Assembly: GCA_012646185.1 (NCBI GenBank)
Contig: GCA_012646185.1_4706.1
DNA length: 64,000 nucleotides
Source of the DNA: a phage
Strand: one strand, 5' to 3'
The notes below the pieces were generated by a model. The model ran no database searches and had not been told where the DNA came from. It worked only from the letters and a program-made list of their open reading frames with translations. Shown piece after piece: positions 4,883 to 55,273 of this stretch; the stretch's first letter is position 1, and each line of letters begins with the position of its first letter. The position numbers and the translations under genes are program-made.

Positions 4883-5721
4883 GCTGGGTTACCTTTTAGT
4901 TTTCCGCGTATCATGTCAACAACGCGTGAGGGATCAGAAATAACATTGGCGATAAGATGATCGATAGGTAGGTCGAGAATGATATTCTTCAGCTGGAAAG
5001 CCGTATCTTTACGACGCACGCCATAGAACACACCATCTTTAAACACAACCTCGTACGAAATGGGGAGCTGGCTAATAACCGTGTTAGCGTAATCACCCAA
5101 CCACATCGACCCCGCCATCAGATGCGCACAAACCGCATGACTAATACGCACATCTTTGTTCTTCCGGCTAACGTCTTTGGTTTTCGACATGGTGACCAGA
5201 AGCTCGCTGATCTTACTCAACATATCGTCGTATACCCCAAAGAACTTAATCAGTTGTCGGGCACCTAACGATATATATGTTTCCCGTGGTAAGACACAAC
5301 ACACCTGCGGTAACGTTCCAACCCCATAAACACAACTGTGTGGCGATAATGGGAGCAAATCAGCAACCGCGTTTTTGATGTTGTTATACTCAACGATATC
5401 ATTGAACGGTGAAAGGCCTTTCGTAATCGGTTTATCAATCGCCACATCGAACTCCGCGAACGTCCATGCTGCTTTACGTGGTTCCGCTTTCTGGTACGGT
5501 GGAGCCAGTACCGCGACAACGCGAAGCCGATGTTCATGGGTATCACGCAGCTTAAGTTGGATACCCTCATCGTCACCCTCACGCACAAGTGAGTAGCGGC
5601 TTGCGCAGTCATCACATACCACCGTTGGTTCGTGTTGACCGTATGCTGCAAGCATCGGTTTACTAAGATCTTTATCACAGTGTTTACAGCGATGATCCTG
5701 TTCCTGATAACTAATTTTCAC
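4879..5721 (-). CDS. hypothetical protein with N-terminal zinc ribbon
   Basis: 280-aa ORF; CKHCD...CDDC. Confidence 0.45.
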   Translation of the reverse strand: MKISYQEQDHRCKHCDKDLSKPMLAAYGQHEPTVVCDDCASRYSLVREGDDEGIQLKLRDTHEHRLRVVAVLAPPYQKAEPRKAAWTFAEFDVAIDKPITKGLSPFNDIVEYNNIKNAVADLLPLSPHSCVYGVGTLPQVCCVLPRETYISLGARQLIKFFGVYDDMLSKISELLVTMSKTKDVSRKNKDVRISHAVCAHLMAGSMWLGDYANTVISQLPISYEVVFKDGVFYGVRRKDTAFQLKNIILDLPIDHLIANVISDPSRVVDMIRGKLKGNPA

Positions 5722-8370: not shown

Positions 8371-8388
8371 CCCTCCCCGAAGGGAGGG
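8371..8388 (-). terminator. GC-rich stem-loop ccctccc-gaa-gggaggg
   Basis: Perfect 7-bp inverted repeat downstream of gene 8399-8956. Confidence 0.45.
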
Positions 8389-8956: not shown

Positions 8957-9435
8957 TGATTTAATTGCTCCAGAAATGCGCGACCCGATTTACTTGCTTT
9001 TAAATGCTGTTCTGCGGAAGTAAGCAGAAGATCGGTTGGCGTATATGCAGCGCTACCTTTCCACGCTGTTTTCAGTTTACCCTTTTCGATACTGAACTGA
9101 ATCAGTTGTTGGGTACCGAAGTTAAGCGTGTTCGTCGCGGCGCTAAATACACCGCCCATCATGCTGTAACCAAAGACTTTCACGTTTTCCGTGTAGAAGT
9201 CGTTATCGATCAATTTGTTCTGGAGCTCGAGTTGGTCGGACGGCAGCAATCCCCCATCAAAGACGCTTAAAATACCAGCCAGGCGATACATGCTCACCTT
9301 TCCTGAAACGCCCACCACGTAGTTGCCGTACAGGGTTTCTTCCAGTTTAGCAACAACGGTGCGATCGTCGGAGGTTTTCATCGAAACCTCAATACCATCA
9401 CCAACTTCTGTTAACGTTAAATCAACGATACTCAT
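8953..9435 (-). CDS. hypothetical protein
   Basis: 160-aa ORF. Confidence 0.45.
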   Translation of the reverse strand: MSIVDLTLTEVGDGIEVSMKTSDDRTVVAKLEETLYGNYVVGVSGKVSMYRLAGILSVFDGGLLPSDQLELQNKLIDNDFYTENVKVFGYSMMGGVFSAATNTLNFGTQQLIQFSIEKGKLKTAWKGSAAYTPTDLLLTSAEQHLKASKSGRAFLEQLNQ

Positions 9436-9456
9436 TCATTATTCTCCGCTTTCATG

Positions 9457-10143
9457 TTAACACATGATTTCACCATGTTTCTTTTCAACATACGTATAAA
9501 CGTCATCCAAATAAGCAATGAGTTTATCACGATCCGCACAGAGCGATTTAATCACCGCAATCTCTTTCATATAAAGCTGCTGACCTAACGCCGGATACGT
9601 AATCCATGCGTAGCCGTCAGGCGCAAATTTAGAAATAAGATAATCAGCGGTTTCCTGTAATGCGAACTCTTTACTCATCTGGCCGTAACGATGTTCGATT
9701 GCACGGATACCAAAACGTTCGTTATCAAGACGACCCATATCCGCCAAACGAAGCACCTGAGAAGCAACCGAGCTACGTGGACCAGAGTACGAGGCACGAT
9801 GTTCAGCAATAAGTACGCGTATCTCCTCGATGTCCTCCGGTGTGAAAATATGCTGCTCGTTACGAAGCAGGATAACCGATGCACGAATACCCCCGATAAG
9901 GTGGTGGTATGTTCTGTTTTCGTGGCAAGCGATATCATGCATAAAAGCAGCGGTTAATAGACGACGACGTTCCGTGGGTCTGATGATCCCAACCACATCA
10001 GCAAGTTCATTTGCCAGTTCAACAACAGCAAGCACATGTTCTTCTTGATGTGCAAGATCGTTCTTCCGAATATTTTCAATTACTTCAGCGCGTGTTTCCT
10101 GAGATAAGAAATTTAAACAATCCAACGAATATAAAGATTTCAT
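9457..10143 (-). CDS. putative HD-domain phosphohydrolase
   Basis: 228-aa ORF; H...HD signature (HQEEHVLAV...AAFMHDIACHE). Confidence 0.5.
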   Translation of the reverse strand: MKSLYSLDCLNFLSQETRAEVIENIRKNDLAHQEEHVLAVVELANELADVVGIIRPTERRRLLTAAFMHDIACHENRTYHHLIGGIRASVILLRNEQHIFTPEDIEEIRVLIAEHRASYSGPRSSVASQVLRLADMGRLDNERFGIRAIEHRYGQMSKEFALQETADYLISKFAPDGYAWITYPALGQQLYMKEIAVIKSLCADRDKLIAYLDDVYTYVEKKHGEIMC

Positions 10144-10184
10144 CGCACGTACCTCTTTGAATCTATTAATAAATTTTCTTTACT

Positions 10185-10208
10185 CACGTAAGTAATATAG
10201 CCGTGAAA
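10185..10208 (-). promoter_or_regulatory. early-promoter-like motif (minus-strand TTTCACGGCTATATTACTTACGTG)
   Basis: Contains TATATTAC; about 45 nt upstream of gene 9457-10143; one of four near-identical copies. Confidence 0.5.
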
Positions 10209-10287
10209 GGATTTGTGTTGGTCCGTCTCGATGCCCATCGTATTTTATGGATTGTCGAATGACGTCATTTTAAGGGACATCCCCGGC

Positions 10288-10316
10288 CTCCTCCCCAGGA
10301 AAGGTGTGGGGAGGAG
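10288..10316 (+). terminator. GC-rich stem-loop followed by T-run
   Basis: ctcctcccca...tggggaggag then ttttt on the plus strand. Confidence 0.35.
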
Positions 10317-10351
10317 TTTTTATCATACATTCTATTAAATCGAGCGCGATT

Positions 10352-12433
10352 ATGTTGGATAGAATCAATCGTTTAATGAACCGAATAACGGTTAAAAATC
10401 AGAGTAACAACACCGTGCATATCGGGGGTATCGATGCCTGGCGTCTTTCAGATGACATTCAGCGAATATGGGGTACCTCCCGATTTATGAAACATATGTT
10501 TCGTAATTTCTCTTCTAGTGGACTCAGTCTCCACAACTTTTACCTTCCCGATTTCGTTTATATTCTCGAAACGATCATCGAAGCAAAGAATACCCGTAGC
10601 AACAAACGCATGCTGAAACACCTTATTGAGGTACTGCTACAGGAAACCTGGCTGCAAAATACCACAATCGAGCAACCTGCAATCCTCGATAAAGCACGCA
10701 TGAACAAAATGCTAACGCTCTCTTTGTTCGATTATCAAGATGAGTTTATCGACATCTATAACCGTAACGTACCTAAATACCGACTGAAAGGATACGTGTG
10801 CGCGATGGGTGCTGGTGCGGGTAAAACAATCACCGCATTGGCTTTAAGCGCCGCAATGAACGTCGACGTATTTGTGGTCTGCTGTCCTAAGAACACCATG
10901 CGTTCAGCATGGCAATCCGATGTAAACAAAGCCATCGTTGACCCCGCAACAGAAACCGCGTTCTGGTCAGACACAATGCCACCATCACAGCTGCAGAAAA
11001 GCGATAAGTATTATTTTCTGCATTACGAATCGATGGGTTTATTAAACGATGTAATGATCAAGCATAAACGCACAGCGAAGCGCGTTCTTATTGTTGTTGA
11101 CGAAAGCCATAACTTCAACGACAAGAACAGCCAACGTTCCCAACGACTGGTTGATCTTGTACAGACAATGCGTCAAACCATGAATGCGGATGTGCACGTC
11201 TTGTTTATGTCGGGTACGCCTGTTAAACAAATGGGTTCTGAGATGATCCCCTGTTTAGGTTGTATCGACCCGATGTTCCAAGGACAGGTGGTCGATAGCT
11301 TCAAATCAATTTACGGTTTAACCAGCAGTCGCGCTAACGATATCCTCAGACATCGTCTTGGGTTCATGATGCATGTCGTACCTAAAGAGGCTTATCGTAA
11401 AACCCGTCCGGAAGTTCAGGACGTTTACGTGAAGCTCCCTAACGGTAGCGATTATACCATCTCAAGTATCCGCGACGACATGGCGGTATTTGTACGCGAT
11501 CGGGCGAAGTATTACAAGGATAACTGGGGGCATTACAGAAAGATTTTTGATGACGCCTTGGACTACTATCGTAAGACTATTCGTACCGATGGTGAACGTA
11601 AAGAGCTATCTCGATACGAATCGATTGTTACTCGTTTCCAGAAAGGTTACGATCCCGTCAGAGACAAAGAAGATGCGATGTTCTGCAATACGTTTGAAAA
11701 ACGAGCGATCATGCCGGTTCTTCCTTCCGATTTAAGGATCGCTTTCAAAGACGCCAAGAGCGTCATCAAGTACGTTGGGTTGAAAATTCAGGGTGAAGCG
11801 TTAGCGCGCGTTCTCGGTGCAGCCCGCATTCGGTGTCATGTCGACATGGTGGAGTACATCGACTTCGAAGGGTACATCAACAACGCTGAAGCCAAAGTGT
11901 TGATCTTCACGTCGTACGTTCAGGTGGTTGAGCGCGTCGACAACCTGCTTCGTGATGCGGGTTTCTTACCGGAACCCATTTACGGGAAGACCAACAAAAA
12001 CATCAACCAAATACTTGCTCGTCTACGCGATGATCCTGACAGCGGTCCCGCTATTGCAACATTTGATAGCTTAGCTGAAGGGGTTCCGATGCTGATGTGT
12101 AATGTCGGCCTTTTCCTGAACAACCCGTGGCGTTCATCCGATGAAATCCAAGCCATCAGCCGTCTCGATCGCGTAGGACAAACGCAGCCTGTTCGGATTT
12201 ATCGTTTCATGTTGGATACAGGAAGCGAGGGTAACGTTTCTACACGTAGCCACGAAATCATGGAGTTAAGTCGACAGCTTGTTGAAGAAATCACGGGTGT
12301 CAAATATGTTGTGAACAAGCAAGATGATGTTAACTTGCAAGAAACGTTGGCAATGGAAGGATACGACCAATACGTTACCGTAAACACCACGGAATACGAT
12401 ATTAAACCACGACCTGCGTTCTTGGAATGGTGA
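10352..12433 (+). CDS. SNF2-family SF2 helicase/ATPase
   Basis: Walker A GAGAGKT, motif II VVDESH, motif VI QAISRLDRVGQ; start placed at first ATG after the stem-loop (track ORF begins at 10304 with GTG inside the hairpin). Confidence 0.65.
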   Translation: MLDRINRLMNRITVKNQSNNTVHIGGIDAWRLSDDIQRIWGTSRFMKHMFRNFSSSGLSLHNFYLPDFVYILETIIEAKNTRSNKRMLKHLIEVLLQETWLQNTTIEQPAILDKARMNKMLTLSLFDYQDEFIDIYNRNVPKYRLKGYVCAMGAGAGKTITALALSAAMNVDVFVVCCPKNTMRSAWQSDVNKAIVDPATETAFWSDTMPPSQLQKSDKYYFLHYESMGLLNDVMIKHKRTAKRVLIVVDESHNFNDKNSQRSQRLVDLVQTMRQTMNADVHVLFMSGTPVKQMGSEMIPCLGCIDPMFQGQVVDSFKSIYGLTSSRANDILRHRLGFMMHVVPKEAYRKTRPEVQDVYVKLPNGSDYTISSIRDDMAVFVRDRAKYYKDNWGHYRKIFDDALDYYRKTIRTDGERKELSRYESIVTRFQKGYDPVRDKEDAMFCNTFEKRAIMPVLPSDLRIAFKDAKSVIKYVGLKIQGEALARVLGAARIRCHVDMVEYIDFEGYINNAEAKVLIFTSYVQVVERVDNLLRDAGFLPEPIYGKTNKNINQILARLRDDPDSGPAIATFDSLAEGVPMLMCNVGLFLNNPWRSSDEIQAISRLDRVGQTQPVRIYRFMLDTGSEGNVSTRSHEIMELSRQLVEEITGVKYVVNKQDDVNLQETLAMEGYDQYVTVNTTEYDIKPRPAFLEW

Positions 12434-12440
12434 TTAAGAA

Positions 12441-12464
12441 GCTCTGCATGATGTCAGGCAGAGC
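12441..12464 (+). terminator. stem-loop gctctgc...gcagagc
   Basis: Inverted repeat then TTTATA immediately after helicase stop. Confidence 0.4.
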
Positions 12465-12534
12465 TTTATACTTGCATTTGTTGCAACAATCGTATGACGT
12501 ATACGCGTTGTACTTATTTAATAAGGCAGAATAA

Positions 12535-13986
12535 ATGAAACTTAAACAAAGCTGGAAAGACGAACTTCTCGCGTTAGTAAATAGCAAAAACAGCTTACAG
12601 CTGACATTAGCCGACGTAAAATTTGAACTAACTGAACCGGTAAGCGAAGTGCCCGGAACGGTTGTCGTTACGATCAAACCGAACGATGATAGCCGTTACT
12701 TTAACGAGCAGTCTCTGACCTACATCCGTCGAGACATCGCTAAAAACTTCACCGGGATCCCGTTACGGGTTATCGTTAAAAATGATACCGCCGTAAGGGA
12801 TATCATCAATACGATTGCTGAACGTTACGGATTGGTATTTGACACAACCATCGACTTCCTCGAATCCGAGCTGAATAAGCAGATTACGTTCGAAGACACC
12901 GGTATTAAAGACATTACGGTTCCGGTTGCAAACACGTCTTATGTTTGGGCTGGTAATCTTCAGTTCAATATCGCTAACGATACGTTGAGCTTGATTACGA
13001 TCATCAAGCAAACCAATCTTACGAATCTGGTTTATCTGGATGGTGTTGAATCTAACACATCGGGTTCGTTACTATTAGCAACGACCTCGGTTATCGGCGA
13101 AAACGGAAATGCCGAAACAACTGAAGGTGTCCTTGACGCCGCGTACTTCCAGAATATCCTGAACGTCATGGTTCGTTATGGTGATATTACCAGCGAACAA
13201 ATGCAACAAGCAATGCAGACAATTAACGGAAGCGAAGACGCTCGTAGAGTAGAGGTGCGGTCATACGGTGACGCCGAATTACTGGTAACCACCAAGAAAG
13301 ATTGGGTTATCGGTAGCCTTAAGGGTGCTATGGTTGTTGGTCACGCTTCACCTAAACCAATCCAATACGTTCTTAAAACAAAAGGCGGCACCATTATATT
13401 GTCATTAGATGGTTGGACAAATGTCAATATCGATTGGGGTGATGGGAATAAGACGACGCAGGACTCAGGCGATAATGAATATCAGCACAATTATGCGGAC
13501 ACTACAGAACGTACGATCGTCGCTACGGGTACCCCTACCAACGTTGGAGATACAGACGTACAGCAAAGCTTCACCGGTGGTAACATCACTGAAATCGTTG
13601 ACTGGAACAACGGATTACCTAAGGCCCCATCATTACTTGCAGCGAACAGTTTAACTAAGGTTCCCGATTATATCCCGGCATACTGGACATCGTTAGAAGG
13701 TATGTTTACGCGATGCAGCGCTATTAACGACGTGAACATCACCAAATGGAACACCCGCAACGTTACTTCAATGAAGGACCTCTTCTACGGTTGCGCTACG
13801 TTCAACCAACCGATCGGTTCGTGGGATGTTTCGTCTGTTAAGAATGCAGACAATATGTTGTCTGGGTGCTTCGCGTTCAATCAGGATCTGAGTGGTTGGA
13901 CATTCCCGGCAGGCACTTCACACATCAACTACGACGCCATGACCGCCGCATGGCAGGCTGGTTATAAACCACACTTCACCGAGTAA
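12535..13986 (+). CDS. DUF285/BspA-like repeat protein (possible surface or host-interaction protein)
   Basis: 483-aa ORF; C-terminal tandem repeats MF.RC..N..I.KW.T.NVT.M..LF.GC..FNQ.I..WDVS.V.N...M..GC..FNQDLS.W. Confidence 0.6.
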   Translation: MKLKQSWKDELLALVNSKNSLQLTLADVKFELTEPVSEVPGTVVVTIKPNDDSRYFNEQSLTYIRRDIAKNFTGIPLRVIVKNDTAVRDIINTIAERYGLVFDTTIDFLESELNKQITFEDTGIKDITVPVANTSYVWAGNLQFNIANDTLSLITIIKQTNLTNLVYLDGVESNTSGSLLLATTSVIGENGNAETTEGVLDAAYFQNILNVMVRYGDITSEQMQQAMQTINGSEDARRVEVRSYGDAELLVTTKKDWVIGSLKGAMVVGHASPKPIQYVLKTKGGTIILSLDGWTNVNIDWGDGNKTTQDSGDNEYQHNYADTTERTIVATGTPTNVGDTDVQQSFTGGNITEIVDWNNGLPKAPSLLAANSLTKVPDYIPAYWTSLEGMFTRCSAINDVNITKWNTRNVTSMKDLFYGCATFNQPIGSWDVSSVKNADNMLSGCFAFNQDLSGWTFPAGTSHINYDAMTAAWQAGYKPHFTE

Positions 13987-13999
13987 AAAAAAAAAAAAA
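13985..13999. repeat. A15 homopolymer tract
   Basis: 15 consecutive A overlapping the stop codon of 12535-13986. Confidence 0.9.
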
Positions 14000-14011
14000 T
14001 AGATAGCATAT

Positions 14012-14045
14012 CTTCCTCCCTACCCATAACGGGCGGGGAGGAAGG
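14012..14045. terminator. GC-rich stem-loop between convergent genes
   Basis: cttcctccc...ggggaggaagg followed by ttt. Confidence 0.4.
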
Positions 14046-14061
14046 TTTATGTCAATTTAAC

Positions 14062-14400
14062 TTAGAACCAGAGTTCTTTCATGAAGTAGGCTTCCATATC
14101 GTAGATAAGCCACTCGTCAGGGATTTCTAAAGGATCGTCTTCGGTTAAGGTCAGCATGTGCAGGGCGAACGCACGCTTAATATCGTTCAGCAGTTTCTCG
14201 TCGTCGTAACCTTCGGGTAGTTTACGGTCTACCAGCTGGGTTTGTTTATAGACGTCGCGGAATGCTTCAGGGCTGTGTTTGTCCATCGGAAATTGTTCAG
14301 CAGCCTGAACCATAGAAAGCGTCCAGCTTACAACATTGTAACGCTCACCATTAATTTCACTGAACTGATCATCGATTAAACAGATTTGTTGTACGTTCAT
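14062..14400 (-). CDS. hypothetical protein
   Basis: 112-aa ORF. Confidence 0.45.
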   Translation of the reverse strand: MNVQQICLIDDQFSEINGERYNVVSWTLSMVQAAEQFPMDKHSPEAFRDVYKQTQLVDRKLPEGYDDEKLLNDIKRAFALHMLTLTEDDPLEIPDEWLIYDMEAYFMKELWF

Positions 14401-15290
14401 TCATTTTCTCCATTCTTATCTTGGTCGCAATCACACTCTTCGACGTCTTTCTTACTTAAACGTAAGACACCGAGTGCGGCATGCTTGAGTTCTTGCAACG
14501 CGCTTTTCAGCTGACCTTCTTCATCGAAATCAAAATACTTCTCGTTGTAGCTTAATGCTGGAATCATATTTACGAGAGGTTCGATGGCGGGCATCAGCAT
14601 TTCAATGACGACCTTAGGATCAACAAAGCGTTCAAACCCTTCAGGAAGTTTGCTCGCTACAACCTTATCGTTTTTGATGTAGAATTTGTTCTTGAACAGA
14701 TCGTCAAGAATAGCGTTCTCTTCATCCGTACGTTTTGCGTGAGGACGATCGATCATCTGTACAAACACACCATTCAACGCTTCAGGCAACGTCGGATTTT
14801 CACGAAGATAAGTTCCAGCCGGAATTTCAATATCGATCTTCGTCCACTCAACAACCTGGTGGTCTCGTGTGTAGATGACGTCAACTTCCCACGCCAGGCC
14901 ATCAGCGCTTTCTACGGTGTAACGTGTTTTCGCCTGGCCTTCAGGAGCCATGCGTTCGATCGCGTCAAACATCTCGACTGGAATTTCGACTTCGCTTTCC
15001 GTTGCATCACCTGGACCACGATACACCTTCGTGGTCATGATGTATTTCGGCTCTTCGTTATCGATCTGGATCGCACGTGCGCGCACCTGACCTTTCACAC
15101 CACCAACGGCTGTGTTATCAAACAACCATTGATGTTGCACCATATGTTCGATTTTTGATGCGACTTGACGAAGACGTTCAACACCGTCTTCAGCCAGTTT
15201 ACCAAAGAAGACCAGCTCACGTTCCTGCTGTGTCTCACCACTTAACATCATTAAATTGGCGATTTGTTTCACGCCTCTTACTTGTGACAT
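14397..15290 (-). CDS. hypothetical protein
   Basis: 297-aa ORF. Confidence 0.5.
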   Translation of the reverse strand: MSQVRGVKQIANLMMLSGETQQERELVFFGKLAEDGVERLRQVASKIEHMVQHQWLFDNTAVGGVKGQVRARAIQIDNEEPKYIMTTKVYRGPGDATESEVEIPVEMFDAIERMAPEGQAKTRYTVESADGLAWEVDVIYTRDHQVVEWTKIDIEIPAGTYLRENPTLPEALNGVFVQMIDRPHAKRTDEENAILDDLFKNKFYIKNDKVVASKLPEGFERFVDPKVVIEMLMPAIEPLVNMIPALSYNEKYFDFDEEGQLKSALQELKHAALGVLRLSKKDVEECDCDQDKNGENE

Positions 15291-15358: not shown

Positions 15359-16933
15359 TTACAATTCAAAATCTTCATCGATAACACGCTGGGTAAGCAC
15401 TTTGTCGCTGAAGAACTCCACCTTGCGCTGATGGTATTTACGGTGCGCTTCGATAGAAGTACATACCAGATACCAGAACGTTGGCGTCATTCCTTCAAAC
15501 TTCCCTTTCAGCTGACGCAGTCGCCCCAACACCTGAATGTTGCCGGTTCGTGACCCCATCGCTAACGTCATGAACGTCATCACCAAGTCAGGGAGGTCGA
15601 TACCTGTACCTGCCGATTTCACCGTCGTAACGCTAATATCGTTATCCAGCAAGACCATGAAATCTTCTTCAGCAGTATAAGGACCGATCTCTAGCTCAGG
15701 AATACGCTCACTGAGATAGTGCGACAACGACTTACACATATCAACGGTTGCACAATACACCAGCATCTTCATGCCTTCCTGATACTGGTTCATGAAACCT
15801 TTGATGATAACGGTATAGATGAAGTTAAAATACGCGAGTTTGAGTTGCTTGTTCTTCATGATAGACTGTTCGAATATCGTGTGTGAATAAGCTCCGCCAA
15901 ACCCTTTGTATCTGACTTTATCTGTACTGCGTAGTCGATATGTTACCGCATTTACCGCAATATATTTCTTGTATTCGCCTTTTGCATAACGGGCTTCTTT
16001 CGGATACATCAAATACAACATCTGTTCGATAAACGGATCATCGGACACCGCCGTTGCCGACAGATAAATGATTTCCGGAATACTGGCGTAACACTTGACC
16101 TTAAACAAGAAATGCAATGCTTCGTGACACTCGTCATGAATCAGCAAACCTATGCCGGTCTTTTCCCAAAACTCAGCGGGATGAAAGGCATATGGCGCAA
16201 CGCAGTTATTCTTCTCGTAGTCCGCAATATAACGTTGGAACATGTTCAAGGAGAACAATGCGATTTTGAAGTCGAGCTCACCTTGTTCAACCAAGGTTTG
16301 AAACTCCAGCATGCTGTAACGAGGAATGTCGGGATGTGGTGGATCCTCCTTAGCGTTCCCGCGTATCTCAATAACGTCCCCTGGTTCCATCCCGAAGAAG
16401 TTCAGCAGTGAGCTTCGCCAACCTGGCATGTATCTCGGCGACAGAATGATACCCGTCCGTACACCACGTCGGAAGGTAATCTCCTGCGACATGGCCGTTT
16501 TTCCTGACCCCGTTTGAGCGGTGTTTAGGCTCATTCTGAAGGGGGTATCCTTACCCCCGTCCATGTACTCCAACCATTCTTGCTGATCTTGACGCCATGG
16601 AAACTTCCATTTCTTTACGAACTCCACTTCTTTACCTGGTACCGGATCGTGATAGACGATTTCCAACCACTCTTTTCGTATCCCTCGGGAAAAGATAAAA
16701 TCCAAAAACGATTTCAACTGTTCACGGAGTAAGTATACCTCGCTATAATCGCTTCTCGCCGCGGCATACGTGTTTATGGTATCGGTAACCATTCTCCGTG
16801 TACGAGGGTCACGCCGTTTCCTCAGATGCAAACAACGGTCTCGAAGGTAATGGCCTATCAAATGGGCAAATCGAAGTCCGTATCCGCTCAGCCTCATGCC
16901 ATGCGAGAAGACGTCGATACGAGCTAACTTCAT
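15359..16933 (-). CDS. SF2 DExH-box helicase
   Basis: 524-aa ORF; Walker A AQTGSGKT, motif II IHDECHE, SAT, motif VI QVLGRLRQ. Confidence 0.65.
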   Translation of the reverse strand: MKLARIDVFSHGMRLSGYGLRFAHLIGHYLRDRCLHLRKRRDPRTRRMVTDTINTYAAARSDYSEVYLLREQLKSFLDFIFSRGIRKEWLEIVYHDPVPGKEVEFVKKWKFPWRQDQQEWLEYMDGGKDTPFRMSLNTAQTGSGKTAMSQEITFRRGVRTGIILSPRYMPGWRSSLLNFFGMEPGDVIEIRGNAKEDPPHPDIPRYSMLEFQTLVEQGELDFKIALFSLNMFQRYIADYEKNNCVAPYAFHPAEFWEKTGIGLLIHDECHEALHFLFKVKCYASIPEIIYLSATAVSDDPFIEQMLYLMYPKEARYAKGEYKKYIAVNAVTYRLRSTDKVRYKGFGGAYSHTIFEQSIMKNKQLKLAYFNFIYTVIIKGFMNQYQEGMKMLVYCATVDMCKSLSHYLSERIPELEIGPYTAEEDFMVLLDNDISVTTVKSAGTGIDLPDLVMTFMTLAMGSRTGNIQVLGRLRQLKGKFEGMTPTFWYLVCTSIEAHRKYHQRKVEFFSDKVLTQRVIDEDFEL

Positions 16934-19681: not shown

Positions 19682-19711
19682 CCCTCCCACCTCCACATGG
19701 GAGAGGGAGGG
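19682..19711 (-). terminator. GC-rich stem-loop ccctccc...gggaggg
   Basis: Inverted repeat downstream of gene 19725-20087. Confidence 0.4.
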
Positions 19712-23561: not shown

Positions 23562-23626
23562 GATAACCCTCCCACAGCGTAAAGCGTAGGGAGGGCATTT
23601 ATGCCGTCGTTCGATGACTTAATACA

Positions 23627-34335: not shown

Positions 34336-34378
34336 AAACCCTCCCCGCCTTATGCAGGGAGGGCAGCCATTAAATGGA

Positions 34379-35257: not shown

Positions 35258-35617
35258 CAAAATCTTCAGTATGAATCGCTACTTCATACCCGCAGCATTA
35301 CCTGCAGCTCCTGGTGTTACCAGGATGTTGAGAGTATATCATGCCCATATTCCAAATGGAACGTAGGACTTCCGCGCTGGATCTCGCTTGAGACCACTTA
35401 CTCGTTGAACGTTCTCCTAAACGGAGCTTCGCTGCTGATTGGACATTGTTACGTACGGTAGGCGTCCCATTAAAGGGATTTTCATTGAAGCCGCGTACAT
35501 CCGTTACCTTGTTTCTACCTTATCGGTTCCTCTTACGAGGCGTAACGGCTTTAGCCTATTCCAGCAATTCACGGAATGCATATTCTCCTTTTCAGGAGAT
35601 AAGGCCATGGCTCTGGC
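35258..35617 (-). ncRNA. putative self-splicing intron 1 (ORF-less, group I-like), boundaries approximate
   Basis: About 360-nt hairpin-rich sequence between DFDGD codons and resumption of beta-prime homology; tandem relative of intron 2. Confidence 0.5.
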
Positions 35618-35632
35618 ATCACCGTCAAAGTC
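35618..35632 (-). CDS. RNA polymerase beta-prime micro-exon encoding DFDGD (proposed)
   Basis: Minus-strand codons GAC TTT GAC GGT GAT; flanked by the two intron copies; exon 1 ends ...GYNA. Confidence 0.5.
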
Positions 35633-35982
35633 CACATATCTTCAGTATGAATCGCTACTTCATACCCGCAGCATTACCTGCAGCTCCTGGTGTTACCAGG
35701 ACGGAGAGATCATCTCATCACCCACGAAGGGTGTTCCGCGCTACCCTCAGCGAATTCGAGGGACATGATCGTTGAACCTTCCACCGATAATCGGTGGCTA
35801 GGCTGCTGATTAAACATTGTACGTTGGGGTGGCATCCTGGTTCAGGACTGTCGTTGAAGCCTCCCAACATCCACTCACTTATTTCCGCCTTATCGGCTCC
35901 CATAAGGGCAGAGTGGCTTTAGCCCGTCTCAGCAATTCACGGAATTCAAGCTCTTCCTTTCAGAAGGCAGGGCCTCATCTGA
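35633..35982 (-). ncRNA. putative self-splicing intron 2 (ORF-less, group I-like), boundaries approximate
   Basis: Follows the codon for Ala of ...KGYNA (exon ends in U); RNA ends in G just before GAC of DFDGD; track ORF reads 17 codons into it then stops. Confidence 0.5.
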
Positions 35983-37233
35983 AGCATTGTATCCCTTAAG
36001 GATCATCACGCTTAACCCGATGGTGTTATCCTGCGGATCGCGTTTAACCTTGGTGATTTCAAGACATTGGTTACTGCTTCGGTCAAGTGATGGGTTTCGA
36101 ACAAAGCCGCACACAATCCCATCGAACGGCGTATCAGCAATAAGCTCATCGTGCAGCTCGCTCATCATCGGATGATAATTACGGACATGTTCCGCAACGA
36201 ACGCACGCGCTGCTCTCGGTGAGTAACCACGATGGAATAACTTGGATTGGATATGTTCTTTATTGGTTAAAGTAAATGGTGCGTATGGGAAATGCAGATG
36301 ATAATAACGATGGTTCGCTGTTATCGAACTGATTACGGTACGCGTGGTGAATGGATGTAATGTACCTAATATGTTTTTACGTGTAATACCTTTCTTCTTA
36401 CCGATGAACTCATCGAAAATCGCTGCGTGGTATTGCAGTAGCTTCAATTGCACTTTCGCCATCCAGTTTTCTTTCTTTCTGGCGCTCAAAGGTGTTGTTG
36501 GATGATAGATACTGTTCAACGTACCAATAGCATCGATCGCACCTTCCATTTTGCTATCCGCATAACGACCGGTCGGCGTATTTTCGATAACGAACATCAT
36601 GGCTGCAGGAAAGCTGATATACTGACTGAAGAACTTATCACGATGGATACGGATGAATTCTCGTAGCGTGTCAACTTTCTCCATGTTCTTCGGTCCACGT
36701 AACGTCGGTCCTTTATACAAGATCTCCATGATGCGATCGAAGTTCTGTATAAAGCTATTTACGCCACGCCGTATCCCGAATACATCGAATTGCTGCTCCA
36801 GATAGTTCTTGAGTTCGATGGGTCGTTTTACATTTGGACGGTAACTGGCATCAATGAGCCACGTCATCGTTTCAAAGCTTTTGATATTCAACTCGCTTGC
36901 CAGCACGAGATGGACCAACGGGTTAATGAACGCATCGATTCCTTCAGGAACGCGCGCCCAAACCGTCGAACGAATCTCTTGTTCTGCTGGGTAGGTTACA
37001 ACCGTTTTACAGTTTGGACACACCGTGCCGAGTAGCTCACCACGATTGTAGAAACCACAACCACATTGTGGTGTGATATCCAACGTATCGCTGGAGTAAA
37101 CACGGGTGATAAAACTGTTTAATTTCTTCTTCTCTTCGACGACTTTTGTATCGTAATCATTCAACAAAATCGGCGTGAAAGGAAGTTCTGCGAGCTGTCT
37201 ATCGAAACTCACGATATCGAGCATGATGGCCAT
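35983..37233 (-). CDS. RNA polymerase beta-prime N-terminal subunit, exon 1
   Basis: Zn-finger CGCGFYNRGELLGTVCPNCKTVV (compare CxCGKY...C..CGVEV); NPSLDRSS (compare NRQPSLHK / NRAPTLHR); IGLSVMILKGYNA (compare LNLSVTSPYNA) immediately before the missing DFDGD. Confidence 0.65.
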
Positions 37234-39475: not shown

Positions 39476-40570
39476 ATGTTTCGTGTTTTAAATAACCTCC
39501 CGCGAACATCATCGGGTGTGCAACCCGTCCCTCAGAAAGACTATCTAATACGCGAAGTTCAAAGAAACCTACAGACAATCCAGAACCACTATCAAGGTTT
39601 TACCTTCGCGGTTCAGAGCGATCACATCCTTGCGTTGCTGCTCGCACAGCTCCCTATGAGATACGACATCTCAGTACAAACTTACTACGACATGATTCTC
39701 GATCTTACCCCAGAATTGGGTAATCGTGTCAAGTTGACAACATCAAGATACGCGGGTAAGTTATTCGACGGTGCTTTCTATCCGGGATTGCACGAAGCTA
39801 TTATCGCAACCGGTGAAAGTCGTCTTATTTCACGTGACGTTCTTGACAACTGGCGTAATTGGTCACCAGTTAGAATCGTGACGCACCCATACGCAAATCT
39901 TCGTTACATTCCTCTTCACCGAAAGCAGGTTGAAGATGGGCGAGGTTTTGCAGTCATTATGGTTGACGTACCTTTATTAGCGCTACAGTATCGAATGTGG
40001 TCTTTGATCATGGGTCATAACGTCGACGGTAAATGGGTGGTTAAAGAACCGGTTACAAGCTTCCTTGCGAGTTTTCCGTTGGTTAACGCATTATACTCAC
40101 ACAACGATGTTGTTATACGTAATCGTTGTTTGTGGGTATCTCCGGCTAAGAATCCACTCAAATCACCCATTTACGTTAACGACCTTGATAACGTATTCAG
40201 CCAAGTCGTTCTGTCCGTACAGCATCATTTATTACGAAGAAGACGAAGCTACACCGATATGCTTAAACAGATACCGAGTTTATACGGAGATCAGTACCAA
40301 GCAACCCGAATGGGTTACACCGTCGATCTTCGACAAACACGATGGGCAAGGGATCTGGGTTGTCTGTCATTATGGCAACAACTCGTCACATTGCAAAACG
40401 TATCTGAAAGCGTCGGGTTCAGCAGTCAAATCGATAACGACCTGTACCGTGCTGCCGACCGGAGTCTAAAAGAAGGTAACTGGGAATCCTCTCCGTTACC
40501 TGGCGATTTAAGACGTGAAGTTATCGCACAGGTTGCCGACCTCTTAAAAATTCTTCCCGCTGGTGCATAA
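39476..40570 (+). CDS. hypothetical protein
   Basis: 364-aa plus-strand ORF. Confidence 0.5.
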   Translation: MFRVLNNLPRTSSGVQPVPQKDYLIREVQRNLQTIQNHYQGFTFAVQSDHILALLLAQLPMRYDISVQTYYDMILDLTPELGNRVKLTTSRYAGKLFDGAFYPGLHEAIIATGESRLISRDVLDNWRNWSPVRIVTHPYANLRYIPLHRKQVEDGRGFAVIMVDVPLLALQYRMWSLIMGHNVDGKWVVKEPVTSFLASFPLVNALYSHNDVVIRNRCLWVSPAKNPLKSPIYVNDLDNVFSQVVLSVQHHLLRRRRSYTDMLKQIPSLYGDQYQATRMGYTVDLRQTRWARDLGCLSLWQQLVTLQNVSESVGFSSQIDNDLYRAADRSLKEGNWESSPLPGDLRREVIAQVADLLKILPAGA

Positions 40571-40591: not shown

Positions 40592-40620
40592 TCCTCCCAA
40601 CCCGTAAGGGAAGGGAGGAT
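40592..40620. terminator. GC-rich stem-loop between convergent genes
   Basis: tcctcccaaccc-gtaa-gggaagggagga. Confidence 0.4.
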
Positions 40621-48223: not shown

Positions 48224-49066
48224 ATGGGTGCTATTGACTACAGTGTAGATCGTATCTGTCGTACAATACCGGCAGATATCCTACAGTATTGCTATATCGA
48301 TCGTTACGACTGGCGTAATCGCTATCCTCGTTCCGTAGAAGACATCATTACCGATTGGGTAATCCGTAAACGGGTTATCGGCGACATCGATATCTACGGG
48401 GGGCTACAAACCGTTATCCCCCTTGATGATGCCGGTGTCACTATCGAAGAAGTCACCATTAACTGTTATGTTTTCCACATTCCGTTGGAAGCCACACAGG
48501 GACGTTATATCACGTCCGCATTATCCATTATTTCAGGGAGCGTGAACAACTACGGAATAAACTATAACGGGCAATGGGGTGCTTTCAACCAAACCCAGTT
48601 TCAACGTCAGCTTTGTGGGTGGAACCCCGCAAGCAACACGTTACAGCAAGGGATGAACGCGTTCGGTCCCATGAACGTTCTTAGTACAGCCAACGTTGAT
48701 ATCATCGCCCCTAACACCATCATGGTGAACAACGTCACGCCTGTACAATTTCCCCTGAGCCTACGCTGTTTCCTTGCCCACGATCCGGAACTTACCAACC
48801 TCAGCATGGAGGTTTGGAACGACTTCTACAAACTCTGTTTATACGCCACGCAAAGTGACATCTACAACAGAACCGTTATCCGTCTCGATAGAGGTGTTAC
48901 AGCACAAGGACAAGAAGTCGGTGCATTCAAGGAATACATCGATCGCTTTGCCGATGCTGAAAACACATATCAGGAATTCCTGAACGAAACGTGGGCTGGC
49001 GTTGCCGCCTGGAACGATCCGCAAACTAAACGTCGCGCCATTCGACTACAAACCGGTTACTTCTGA
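48224..49066 (+). CDS. hypothetical protein
   Basis: 280-aa plus-strand ORF. Confidence 0.5.
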   Translation: MGAIDYSVDRICRTIPADILQYCYIDRYDWRNRYPRSVEDIITDWVIRKRVIGDIDIYGGLQTVIPLDDAGVTIEEVTINCYVFHIPLEATQGRYITSALSIISGSVNNYGINYNGQWGAFNQTQFQRQLCGWNPASNTLQQGMNAFGPMNVLSTANVDIIAPNTIMVNNVTPVQFPLSLRCFLAHDPELTNLSMEVWNDFYKLCLYATQSDIYNRTVIRLDRGVTAQGQEVGAFKEYIDRFADAENTYQEFLNETWAGVAAWNDPQTKRRAIRLQTGYF

Positions 49067-49593
49067 TTAACGACAGCTTCCTCCCTCGGAGTTTTCGAGG
49101 GAGGTATTTGCCGTTTGAACACTTTCAGCATGTTCGCAAAATCAGCAGCAATAATACAGGCCGAGGTTGATAGCTTATTACTGAAAATGAGATCGTCCGG
49201 TAAACAATCGAACTGAATACCGTATTGCGTCTTTGTCTCATCAACGATCAATGACGGTGTCGATCTTGTCTTCGCGATGTCGGTGATATACAAACGTAGA
49301 AATAATTCACCGTCTTCGCTATCCATAAAACGATAAGCGTTACCAGAAAACGCAACATGCGGCGTAACGATAAATTGAACACGATCGTCGGTCGGATGGA
49401 TATTTAACCAACGTTCGATATCATTACTACTCACATTTCGCATATTTACTACGGTAAAAGCAAATAGCGTATCGTGATGTTTGGAATAATGCAGCACGTA
49501 CGCCGCACCTTTCTTTTTGTGAATCCCTTCAATGTATTCTATTGTCGTATAGCCAGATTTATATAGCTTTACTTGCGGTTTATCACTCATCAT
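49057..49593 (-). CDS. hypothetical protein
   Basis: Start moved to ATG (MMSDKPQ) that overlaps the stop of the upstream ORF (ATGATGA arrangement). Confidence 0.45.
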   Translation of the reverse strand: MMSDKPQVKLYKSGYTTIEYIEGIHKKKGAAYVLHYSKHHDTLFAFTVVNMRNVSSNDIERWLNIHPTDDRVQFIVTPHVAFSGNAYRFMDSEDGELFLRLYITDIAKTRSTPSLIVDETKTQYGIQFDCLPDDLIFSNKLSTSACIIAADFANMLKVFKRQIPPSKTPREEAVVNQK

Positions 49594-54028: not shown

Positions 54029-55273
54029 ATGCTCATGTCTTCTATTTTACAGGTGTTTAATGCGCATGCGGAAGGCATTGACATCGACGAGTATTTTGTT
54101 AATCAGGTTATCCGTTACGCGACACGCTTCCGTACGCAAGACCAAGAACACATGCGTTTTTTCGGTGGGGTTCTGTTAGGTGTACAGAAAATCCGATTCA
54201 CAACAAGACATAACGATACATGGTTTTCCGACGTCTTGATGATGGATGAAGAAAGCTTACGGCGCGATTTGAGTAAACTGCCCTTCTACAATACGCAGAC
54301 CAACCGTGTTGCCTCAAACGCCTTTAACCTAAGTTGCTGTTGGTTGCTTTATGCGATCTTCCACAGCAAACAAATCAAAAAAGAAAAGGTTCGTGAAGCC
54401 GGGATGCTTGCAGCAATGCAAGTCCTCCATTATAAATTCATTTGCGGTCTGGTAGCACGACGTTATCCTTATAACGCCGATCCGGCTATCGCCATTAAAG
54501 CGTACGATGAGTTAACACTCAAATCAGGCATCAAGCGCATGAATAGCTGGAATGAGTACATCGACGAACGCTGTAATGCCATCATTGCGCGTAATAGTAC
54601 ACATTTCAGTCGTTGGTCAACCCTGGAACCTGATAGCGTCGCCGAACGTTTTGTGCGTGATGTGAATACCGGAATCCGTAAGGTTATCAACCGTATCACC
54701 GATACGTACTACGCGATGTACGAAGAAGGTAAGAAGATAGGCACGTCTTCTCAAACTGTAGAGTTAGACGATGGTCTCGCTGTTCGCGATATTAAACGCA
54801 ACGAAACCACTTATCGTCAATATCTGTTCGAAATCGCTTATGACCGAACAAGTTTCGTTAAACGTGAACTCATGGTCGTCATCCTCGACGTGCATCATAC
54901 TACCAATCTTTTATCCCTTGAGCGAGCGTTAAGCTATATCAGCGCTAACGTAGAACGACCGACAAGAGACGGAAAACAGGTCTCTCAGATGTTGCGGCTT
55001 GTAATGGAGCATGCTATCGAGTATATCATCTTGAATAAGGTCGATATGCGCGATCTTACGTTCTTATTCTACATGCGTAACGTGTACACGTCCAACCGTA
55101 CCAGCAACCCGAAACTGTTAGAACTGCGTAAAATTGGCTCTGAAGTCATTAAGAAAGCAACCAATGCGAGAAACGACGCTGAAGCTGCGGCGACACGCAC
55201 CGGTGTCTTTCTGTATATCCTGCTTCGTGTGTTTAGCCGTAACTATTACGTTCGACGTGCGATGTCACGTTAA
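54029..55273 (+). CDS. hypothetical protein
   Basis: 414-aa plus-strand ORF; gagggag before ATG. Confidence 0.5.
   Translation: MLMSSILQVFNAHAEGIDIDEYFVNQVIRYATRFRTQDQEHMRFFGGVLLGVQKIRFTTRHNDTWFSDVLMMDEESLRRDLSKLPFYNTQTNRVASNAFNLSCCWLLYAIFHSKQIKKEKVREAGMLAAMQVLHYKFICGLVARRYPYNADPAIAIKAYDELTLKSGIKRMNSWNEYIDERCNAIIARNSTHFSRWSTLEPDSVAERFVRDVNTGIRKVINRITDTYYAMYEEGKKIGTSSQTVELDDGLAVRDIKRNETTYRQYLFEIAYDRTSFVKRELMVVILDVHHTTNLLSLERALSYISANVERPTRDGKQVSQMLRLVMEHAIEYIILNKVDMRDLTFLFYMRNVYTSNRTSNPKLLELRKIGSEVIKKATNARNDAEAAATRTGVFLYILLRVFSRNYYVRRAMSR

Follow-up and report, generated by a model that had tools for sequence, protein, structure and literature searches.

We analyzed a 64,000-nucleotide stretch of phage DNA (contig GCA_012646185.1_4706.1 of NCBI GenBank assembly GCA_012646185.1; the whole stretch is called the window below), in which positions 10,352 to 13,986 hold two adjacent plus-strand genes: gene 1, for an SNF2-type ATPase, and gene 2, for a protein that joins a DUF7941 module to leucine-rich repeats (LRRs) of the DUF285 family. 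Our reading, to which we assign a probability of about 0.8, is that these are two separately terminated virion-protein genes of a Goslar-like phage of the Chimalliviridae, inverted amid mostly non-virion minus-strand genes and fenced by hairpins of a terminator family. The identity of the locus, the domain make-up, fold class and orthology of its proteins, and the hypervariability of a cassette within gene 2 are established; presence in the virion is established through the literature, by way of Goslar proteins that are 96-99% identical.

A megablast search with positions 10200-14100 returned a single match, Escherichia phage vB_EcoM_Goslar (hereafter Goslar), a nucleus-forming jumbo phage of the Chimalliviridae, with 96.2% nucleotide identity across the full length (100%) of the query. 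Gene order and annotated terminators at the locus are the same in both phages, and the remainder of the window is collinear with Goslar, including the genes for chimallin, DNA polymerase, PhuZ, the large terminase and the subunits of the non-virion RNA polymerase (nvRNAP). The proteins encoded by genes 1 and 2 share 98.6% and 95.9% amino acid identity with Goslar gp160 and gp161, respectively. Both genes have already been described: the RefSeq annotation carries the names that a first-pass annotation of the window, made from the sequence alone, had guessed, and gp161 is named in a 2026 preprint on the structure and proteome of the Goslar virion. The first-pass annotation had also described two long plus-strand genes amid a minus-strand block, and the list of open reading frames (ORFs) confirms this across positions 1-24000, where genes 1 and 2 are the only plus-strand ORFs of more than 156 amino acids (aa) and the remaining long ORFs all lie on the minus strand. 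The virion proteomics that it suggested has already been done for Goslar, in which both gp160 and gp161 are virion-associated.

Gene 1 appears in the ORF list as a 709-aa frame with a GTG start (10304-12433, plus strand). The ATG at 10352 is the likely start, since the GTG sits within the upstream hairpin, the Goslar annotation starts at the equivalent ATG, and the tblastn alignment pairs residue 1 with the codon at which gp203 of phage phiKZ is annotated to start.

Gene 2 joins a virion module to a short DUF285 solenoid

Pfam profiles place DUF7941 (PF25613) at residues 4-209 of the gene 2 protein (E = 7.2e-25, 88.4 bits against a cut-off of 27, profile positions 5-216 of 276) and DUF285 (PF03382) at residues 385-456 (E = 5.4e-22, 78.2 bits against a cut-off of 25), and the NCBIfam profile for PARCEL, TIGR02167, scores 33.7 bits (cut-off 30). 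The significant DUF285 match bears out the earlier proposal that the protein carries DUF285 repeats. The accompanying label, BspA-type, does not hold in the strict sense: BspA-type LRR_5 and other LRR families are absent from the Pfam list at E <= 1, which holds, besides DUF7941 and DUF285, only a weak Rad60-SLD match. The N-terminal part of the protein matches phrog_1037 and phrog_2935 in PHROGs, both labelled 'virion structural protein'. The link between gene 2 and the virion comes from this DUF7941 module, which marks a family of virion-fibre proteins in chimalliviruses and was overlooked in the first-pass annotation.

An alignment of 25 homologues, together with an AlphaFold2 model, divides the protein into four parts (Table 1): a conserved N-terminal globular part, a variable helical linker, a beta-strand-rich middle domain in which a DWGDG motif (D300 W301 G302 D303 G304) is invariant among the 25 homologues, and a C-terminal solenoid whose LRR-type fold is confirmed on the model. 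No signal peptide, lipobox or membrane anchor was found in the protein; on the Kyte-Doolittle scale, the best 12-residue stretch within the first 46 residues reaches 0.98 and the maximum 19-residue window 0.92. The RefSeq name for such proteins ('BspA family ... surface protein') does not apply in the sense of a bacterial cell-surface protein, as the N-terminus is a DUF7941 module and there is no secretion or anchoring signal.

DUF285 repeats had been called unusual in a phage, and the searches speak otherwise. A tblastn search with the whole gene 2 protein matched 396 places in 116 phage records, and nearly all listed matches outside Goslar cover the DUF285 part only. These matches include Synechococcus phages, Prevotella Lak megaphages and phages of Aeromonas, Campylobacter and Listeria, some Vibrio jumbo phages have 25-39 places each, and the DUF285 region is covered by several PHROG families. 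Proteins of 584 aa that combine DUF7941 and DUF285 were considered as longer gp161 orthologues and rejected; they are located in a tail-fibre cluster and are paralogues.

The distal part of gene 2 is a hypervariable, probably exchangeable cassette

Goslar-like genomes are numerous in public assemblies, as contigs of 235-247 kb that frequently belong to assemblies of Escherichia, Salmonella, Shigella or Enterobacter. Among the gp161 orthologues from such phages, the N-terminal domain is 86-98% identical, and identity in the linker, middle domain and LRR falls to 24-50%. We compared five genomes, including Goslar, that share the local order HD hydrolase, helicase, gp161, gp162, gp163. Their flanking proteins are all close to those of the window (HD hydrolase 96-99%, helicase 93-99%, gp162 90-98%, gp163 89-99% identity), whereas residues 183-483 of gp161 are only 39-63% identical in four of the five, the fifth, Goslar, being at 96%. 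Where the distal part diverges in this way, the N-terminal domain of gp161 stays 87-97% conserved. The transition is abrupt at the nucleotide level. Identity to one of these relatives (genome L004) is about 90-95% until roughly position 13000, drops to 45-59% over 13136-14012 and returns to 94% from 14013 on, such that the breakpoints are sharp, one at about 13100 and the other at the downstream hairpin. Relative to Goslar, non-synonymous and synonymous codon changes number 20 and 28 in gp161 and 10 and 60 in the helicase gene.

A conserved attachment domain followed by an exchangeable distal module is the classic arrangement of tail fibres. The hypervariability of the cassette beside a conserved attachment domain therefore supports a role in host recognition, without proving it. 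In its boldest form, the proposal would be that the region from about 13100 to 14010 is a plug-in host-range cassette that recombines between the DUF7941 N-terminal domain and the terminator hairpin and is the principal determinant of which Enterobacteriaceae strains are captured by a micron-long cloud of fibres; we advance this version only tentatively. With its sharp boundaries and high variability, the cassette is in any case a concrete candidate, easy to swap, for efforts to engineer or predict the host range of jumbo phages associated with E. coli, Salmonella and Shigella.

The right edge of the cassette shows a further kind of variation. In another relative (genome L012, at about 4990-5022), the downstream hairpin is the exact reverse complement of window positions 14012-14044, with the loop and the stem imperfections flipped, which suggests inversion or recombination inside the palindromic stem.

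The gp161 family and host recognition

The virion context of gene 2 comes from the Goslar study (bioRxiv 10.64898/2026.04.21.720040), which describes ten DUF7941 virion proteins (gp161 together with gp22, 23, 31, 33, 34, 86, 91, 92 and 93) and, by mass spectrometry (MS) of virions, finds about 111 copies of gp161 per virion (range 74-174). In the same work gp22 filaments were seen in vitro, head-to-tail oligomers were predicted with AlphaFold, and phiKZ gp126/gp127 were fitted into density at the peripheral baseplate; the authors propose that a 'DUF7941 fibre cloud', gp161 included, mediates initial host recognition. The following mechanism would accommodate these data. The conserved N-terminal module would dock gp161 into DUF7941 filaments, which are proposed to hang from the peripheral baseplate, and the flexible linker, beta-strand-rich middle domain and short DUF285 solenoid would form its exposed distal part. 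That part may bind a ligand on the host surface and, being swapped as a cassette among related phages, may act as an auxiliary module for host recognition and host range. Thus gp161 is probably a fibre-attached LRR protein that aids host finding. The receptor-binding role suggested in the first-pass annotation survives as the leading hypothesis, by way of the Goslar preprint and the hypervariability of the cassette; the argument from the rarity of DUF285 in phages, on which that suggestion drew, does not. Literature searches on DUF285 in phage receptor binding found nothing.

Alternatively, the LRR of gp161 might not bind the host receptor at all. It could cap, cross-link or bundle fibres through protein-protein contacts inside their network, or fasten the virion to mucus, debris or other material that is not a host, a function that has been proposed for decorative Ig-like domains. 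A partner with a structural role alone should co-evolve slowly, but the distal part of gp161 is exchanged as a whole between genomes that are nearly identical, as is usual for host-range modules; in addition, paralogues that share the N-terminal module bear carbohydrate-binding or glycosidase domains. We consider a non-receptor LRR unlikely.

Convergent with gene 2 lies a gp162-like gene (14062-14400, minus strand, 112 aa) whose product has no Pfam or PHROG match. Goslar gp162 is present at about 127 copies per virion, near the 111 of gp161, and the window protein may be an uncharacterized virion protein and a possible partner of gp161.

Gene 1 encodes a SNF2-type ATPase of the phiKZ gp203 family

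The gene 1 product is a SNF2-type ATPase, as its motifs, Pfam matches, PDB sequence matches and predicted fold all agree, and the first-pass assignment to a SNF2-type helicase is borne out. In Pfam, lobe 1 scores higher with ResIII (E = 1.8e-12, 47.9 bits) than with SNF2-rel_dom (PF00176, E = 6.7e-8, 32.4 bits, cut-off 24.9), the protein also matches Helicase_C (E = 4.7e-7, 30.5 bits, cut-off 23.5), and PHROGs assigns the protein to phrog_62, 'DNA helicase' (1e-88). The SNF2-typical motifs I (GAGAGKT at 153), II (DESH at 250), III (SGTP at 287) and VI (QAISRLDRVGQ at 600) are present, and all 43 PDB sequence matches are SNF2-family proteins, among them SWR1, ISWI, SsoRad54, DDM1 and Snf2. The AlphaFold2 model, with a predicted local distance difference test score (pLDDT) of 86, consists of a 120-residue N-terminal domain, two RecA lobes parted by a long helical insertion (about residues 365-500) and a disordered tail, and its fold is nearest to solved SNF2 ATPases, the enlarged inter-lobe helical insertion included. 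From its class, the protein is predicted to translocate on duplex DNA as a DNA-dependent ATPase that does not unwind it. Identity with RapA was rejected; the NCBIfam equivalog PRK04914 scores 16.6 bits against a cut-off of 576.

With gene 1 as query, tblastn (E <= 1e-5) matched 205 records; for 202 of these the alignment spans 80% or more of the query, with a single place in each record. The gene thus has full-length, single-copy orthologues in 202 records of jumbo phages, among them phiKZ, 201phi2-1, EL, OBP, RAY-like Erwinia phages and Vibrio phages, a distribution that indicates vertical inheritance across the Chimalliviridae. The phiKZ orthologue, gp203, is 32.8% identical over 94% of the protein (E = 4e-115) and is annotated 'structural protein'; the family has been recognized among phiKZ-type head proteins for more than ten years. 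According to PMC12676376, citing Thomas 2012, phiKZ gp203 undergoes proteolytic processing, is packaged in the head and co-pellets with DNA once the capsid is disrupted. Green fluorescent protein (GFP) fusions of the RAY (gp131) and phiPA3 (gp233) orthologues are found with capsids and bouquets, not in the nucleus. In Goslar, virion MS gives about 10.6 copies of gp160 per virion (range 7-16.6; supplementary table of bioRxiv 10.64898/2026.04.21.720040), and four of the five subunits of the virion RNA polymerase (vRNAP) are present at about 8-21 copies; in the rows of that dataset for non-virion enzymes, the Rad25-type helicase gp164 stands at 0.39 and two nvRNAP entries at about 0.5-0.6.

Some members of the family carry additional sequence. 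Several of the homologues P0132, P0145, P0159, P0197, P0205, P0207 and P0220 are about 1030-1060 aa long and contain a LAGLIDADG-type homing-endonuclease/intein domain (PF14528), tblastn matches to the helicase are split in two for EL, phiHQ and CF8, and other orthologues have C-terminal extensions of 250-450 residues that belong to no family we could name. A fusion between the helicase and an inner-body protein (homologue P0170), suggested by a precomputed PF12699 label, was dropped when the label was not reproduced even at E <= 10.

A packaged translocase and its possible tasks

The reading that we prefer for the helicase is a DNA-bound translocase that would be injected with the genome and act early in infection. 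Packaged in the head at about ten copies, similar to the vRNAP, it would stay bound to the genome, enter the cell with the injected DNA, and use ATP to travel along DNA and remodel protein-DNA complexes early in infection. Its candidate tasks are the removal of packaging or inner-body proteins and the support of the injected polymerase. The conserved inverted placement of this gene and the vRNAP-like copy number of its product bring into sharper focus the role that a translocase, once injected, might have in the vesicle of early infection.

Some orthologues, for example those of EL and SL2, are annotated as 'DarB-like antirestriction' proteins, and the helicase could accordingly be a co-injected anti-restriction or anti-defence factor that shields the incoming genome, with no part in transcription or genome handling. 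Packaging and association with DNA are compatible with such a role, and dispensability in the laboratory host, as described for phiKZ gp203 (see below), would suit an accessory defence function. Despite the labels, no similarity of gene 1 to P1 DarB was detectable by tblastn at E <= 1e-5: the only Escherichia records among the 205 matches are the two entries of Goslar, and darB of phage P1 is not matched. The Pfam matches of gene 1 include no methyltransferase or other extra domain, NCBIfam helicases of defence systems score far under their cut-offs (for example, DrmD at 37.9 versus 610), and the early vesicle and the nucleus already shield the genome. An anti-restriction function therefore appears quite unlikely.

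Another view is that the helicase works mainly in recombination or replication within the phage nucleus, standing in for UvsW, and that its presence in the virion is incidental. Iyer et al. proposed that Snf2 helicases of group 1 jumbo phages might replace UvsW (PMC7824862), and the copy number of gp160 falls in a range where non-structural proteins also show in MS. The RAY and phiPA3 fusions, however, go to capsids and bouquets and not to the nucleus, phiKZ gp203 is reportedly processed like other head proteins, and the non-virion helicase gp164 is about 27-fold below gp160 in the same Goslar dataset. These results make a UvsW-like role very unlikely.

Orientation of the two genes

Six plus-strand genes were found in the window by a scan for ORFs of at least 100 aa, and all match Goslar virion proteins: gp160, gp161, gp172, gp233, gp224 and gp245. 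In Goslar, gp172 (inner baseplate) and gp233 (neck adaptor) have been modelled in the cryo-electron microscopy map, and gp224 and gp245 are present at about 37 and 16 copies per virion. Three of the other plus-strand genes, at 39476-40570, 48224-49066 and 54029-55273, correspond to gp245, gp233 and gp224, and the first two end at hairpins with a CCTCCC stem. Islets of plus-strand genes within this block seem, in general, to encode virion proteins. Furthermore, in four distant relatives (phiKZ, Ea35-70, OBP and pTD1) the helicase gene likewise runs opposite to the genes around it. What follows it varies: gp202/gp201 in phiKZ and an internal head protein in OBP, all annotated as virion proteins, the hypothetical gp129 in Ea35-70, and nothing in pTD1, where the helicase stands alone. 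The strand flip looks meaningful, and the locus may be a late transcription unit.

The first-pass annotation had called the pair a two-gene island. That the genes form a functionally coupled operon, or an island acquired jointly from a bacterial source, is highly improbable: they are adjacent, co-oriented, bracketed by hairpins and kept together in five of five Goslar-like genomes examined, and DUF285 is common among bacterial surface proteins, but a conserved terminator-like hairpin separates them, GC content, GC skew magnitude and GC at third codon positions (GC3) match those of the neighbours (the sign of the skew alone follows the coding strand), the helicase is inherited vertically as a single copy across the Chimalliviridae, the genes downstream of it in phiKZ, OBP, Ea35-70 and pTD1 are unrelated or lacking, the two proteins evolve independently (93-99% versus 39-63% identity), and their copy numbers are about ten-fold apart. 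The pairing of helicase and DUF7941 was not seen in these four lineages: phiKZ gp201/gp202 have no Pfam match and fall into PHROG families other than those of gp161, with no link to DUF7941, and the same is true of Ea35-70 gp129 and OBP gp262, which were compared through PHROGs only. Because composition matches, the helicase is vertical, a hairpin lies between the genes and the genes evolve independently, the locus is neither foreign DNA nor one operon.

Several points weigh against the reading of the locus given here. The fibre cloud is the model of a preprint, based in part on AlphaFold, and no DUF7941 density was seen in the Goslar baseplate map. AlphaFold2 models the N-terminal domain of gene 2 poorly, with pLDDT below 50 at residues 53-176, and the middle domain (about 275-345) has no Pfam PKD match at E <= 1; its DWGDG motif and strands recall the PKD WxxGDG motif by eye. 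The passages on gp203 in PMC12676376 describe the phiKZ helicase as tolerant of transposon insertions and non-essential. The Goslar MS list also includes thymidylate synthase (about 20 copies) and chimallin (about 126 copies) (bioRxiv 10.64898/2026.04.21.720040), and low-copy detection alone is for that reason weak proof of virion membership. Strand is not a clean divider of classes, as gp162, on the minus strand, is also abundant in the virion at about 127 copies, and transcription timing for these genes was not found in the literature searched, which did not extend to the original temporal-transcription study of phiKZ (Ceyssens 2014).

Hairpins and intergenic regions

The bracketing stem-loops noted in the first-pass annotation are real, at 10288-10316 and 14010-14046, as judged by folding and by membership in a shared CCTCCC...GGGAGG family. 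The CCTCCC-loop-GGGAGG core occurs nine times in the window (Table 1) versus 0.02 expected, and both bracketing hairpins are members. With the exception of the copy at 10290, each copy has the stop codon of one adjacent long ORF, or of two, no more than about 50 nt away, and on the transcribed strand GTTTATGC often comes next. The family is probably a conserved terminator motif of this phage. The TATG in the hairpin tail resembles what we take to be the core of the phiKZ late promoter. In parallel to the hairpin family, conserved terminator motifs have been mapped in 201phi2-1 and phiKZ (PMC11512511).

The upstream hairpin has the look of either a plus-strand terminator or a hairpin in a 5' leader; it is oriented like the former, though no plus-strand gene precedes it, and it is unexceptional against shuffled sequences (z = -1.9). 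The intergenic hairpin, which the first-pass annotation did not mention, keeps its stem in Goslar and L004, with differences confined to the loop. The downstream hairpin is a probable bidirectional terminator at the convergent junction with the gp162-like gene. The GenBank record of Goslar marks two of the three hairpins as putative terminators, the one ahead of the helicase gene and the one that parts it from gp161, and has no terminator feature after gp161. In L004 the upstream stem carries a compensatory A-U to G-C double change, and its downstream stem, through two changes, has G-C pairs where the window has a mismatch and a G-U wobble. Because these stem changes compensate or repair pairing, they support selection on hairpin structure.

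An A15 run at 13986-14000 directly trails the gp161 stop codon, overlapping it, and is read as T15 on the minus strand. The run is 15 nt long in the window, 11 in Goslar and 10 in L004, and the minus-strand T-tract lies 12 nt past the convergent hairpin.

The 208-bp region between the divergent HD-hydrolase and helicase genes is the same in Goslar base for base, against a divergence of 3.5% in the coding regions on either side, and it is mostly conserved in the more distant L004. Promoters for both genes presumably lie within it. A scan of 9400-14500 for sigma-70-type promoters gave 8 sites versus 9.6 expected, that is, no enrichment; these phages use their own polymerases. The sequence ATCGTAT, shared upstream of both genes, was rejected as a motif (19 found versus 14.4 expected). 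By analogy with 201phi2-1, for which a small RNA derived from a 5' untranslated region (5'-UTR) has been reported, the conserved leader with its terminator hairpin may be a premature-termination or 5'-UTR small-RNA element.

Table 1. Coordinates of the genes, protein parts and hairpins discussed in the text (window numbering unless residues are given)
Feature	Position	Strand	Description
Gene 1	10352-12433	+	693 aa from ATG; virion-packaged SNF2-family ATPase, orthologue of Goslar gp160 and phiKZ gp203
Gene 2	12535-13986	+	483 aa; DUF7941-LRR virion protein, orthologue of Goslar gp161
Conserved N-terminal globular part of DUF7941 module	12535-13080	+	residues 1-182; presumed attachment/oligomerization domain
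Variable helical linker	residues 183-250	+	from alignment and AlphaFold2
Beta-strand-rich middle domain	13285-13569	+	residues 251-345; successive predicted strands, pLDDT about 80-95
DUF285/PARCEL LRR solenoid	13570-13983	+	residues 346-483; about 3 canonical 25-26-residue repeats plus degenerate ones
Exchangeable cassette (linker, middle domain, LRR)	13136-14012	+	from just past the conserved N-terminal domain to the terminator hairpin
Divergent intergenic region, HD-hydrolase gene (minus, start 10143)/helicase	10144-10351	.	208 bp
Upstream hairpin, CCTCCTCCCCA...TGGGGAGGAG then TTTTTAT	10288-10316	+	-20.6 kcal/mol; 36 nt 5' of helicase ATG
Intergenic hairpin, AGCTCTGC...GCAGAGCT, then TTTATACTT	12438-12467	+	-19.3 kcal/mol, z = -3.5; terminator-like
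Downstream hairpin	14010-14046	.	plus strand -30.5 kcal/mol, z = -6.6; minus strand -26.1 kcal/mol, z = -4.9
CCTCCC-loop-GGGAGG copies	329-345, 8372-8387, 10290-10314, 14015-14041, 19683-19710, 23568-23594, 34340-34362, 40593-40618, 49080-49104		

Other variation in the window and its relatives

Goslar has an HNH endonuclease gene, gp186, and a 377-nt group I intron within or beside the gene for an nvRNAP subunit (L011, 12466-13961). The window lacks this 1497-bp stretch at 35310-35992 (minus strand) and has 407 unrelated bp in its place, with two tandem sub-threshold group I intron matches (27.4 and 23.1 bits) and internally repeated sequence, which suggests a different, endonuclease-free intron arrangement. 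The Rad25-type helicase is 524 aa long in the window (15359-16933, minus strand) versus 753 aa in L004 (8823-11084), L012 and L014; the extra length comes from about 227 aa inserted in frame between residues 145 and 146, either as a candidate intein or as another kind of insertion, and the 753-aa protein has no Pfam match at E <= 0.01. Rfam gave no match in 9900-14300 at E <= 1 and none across the window at gathering thresholds, no tRNAs were found in the window, and neither protein has a paralogue within it.

Comparison with known systems

As a discovery the locus matters little, both genes having been annotated and studied in Goslar already. What is added here is incremental: the hypervariability of the cassette with its defined breakpoints, the inversion of the helicase gene across the family, and the family of terminator hairpins. 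Goslar gp160 and gp161 equal the window proteins in length, order, orientation and flanking and intervening hairpins, and differ from them by 10 and 20 amino acid substitutions, respectively; the poly-A run past the gp161 stop codon is longer in the window than in Goslar.

Within Goslar, the DUF7941 paralogues (the filament subunits gp22 and gp23, and gp86 and gp92) resemble gp161, as do phiKZ gp126/gp127, in having an N-terminal DUF7941 module and in their association with the virion. In gp86 and gp92, DUF7941 is combined with carbohydrate-binding, hydrolase or LRR domains. Whereas gp22 has a C-terminal globular DUF7941 sub-domain, gp161 lacks one and bears the middle domain and DUF285 LRR in its place, and the gp161 gene is set apart, by gene number, from the other DUF7941 genes (gp22-34 and gp86-93). 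The DUF285/PARCEL surface proteins and lipoproteins of bacteria (Mycoplasma; 'Liste_lipo_26' of Listeria) share with gene 2 the 25-26-residue repeat and the LRR-type solenoid, but the gene 2 protein has only about three canonical repeats and is anchored through a phage-specific module.

Eukaryotic and archaeal SNF2 remodellers (Ino80, CSB/ERCC6, SNF2h, Chd1 and SsoRad54) are 14-19% identical to the gene 1 product, which, unlike them, has no accessory chromatin-reading domains and has its own 120-residue N-terminal domain and disordered tail. Nucleosomes are an impossible substrate for it. The phiKZ gp203 family (with RAY gp131, phiPA3 gp233 and OBP gp263) is alike in full-length similarity, single copy, inverted gene and reported association with the virion or capsid. 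It differs in its downstream neighbour, which varies by lineage, and some of its members carry LAGLIDADG inteins or long C-terminal extensions, whereas the copy in the window has neither.

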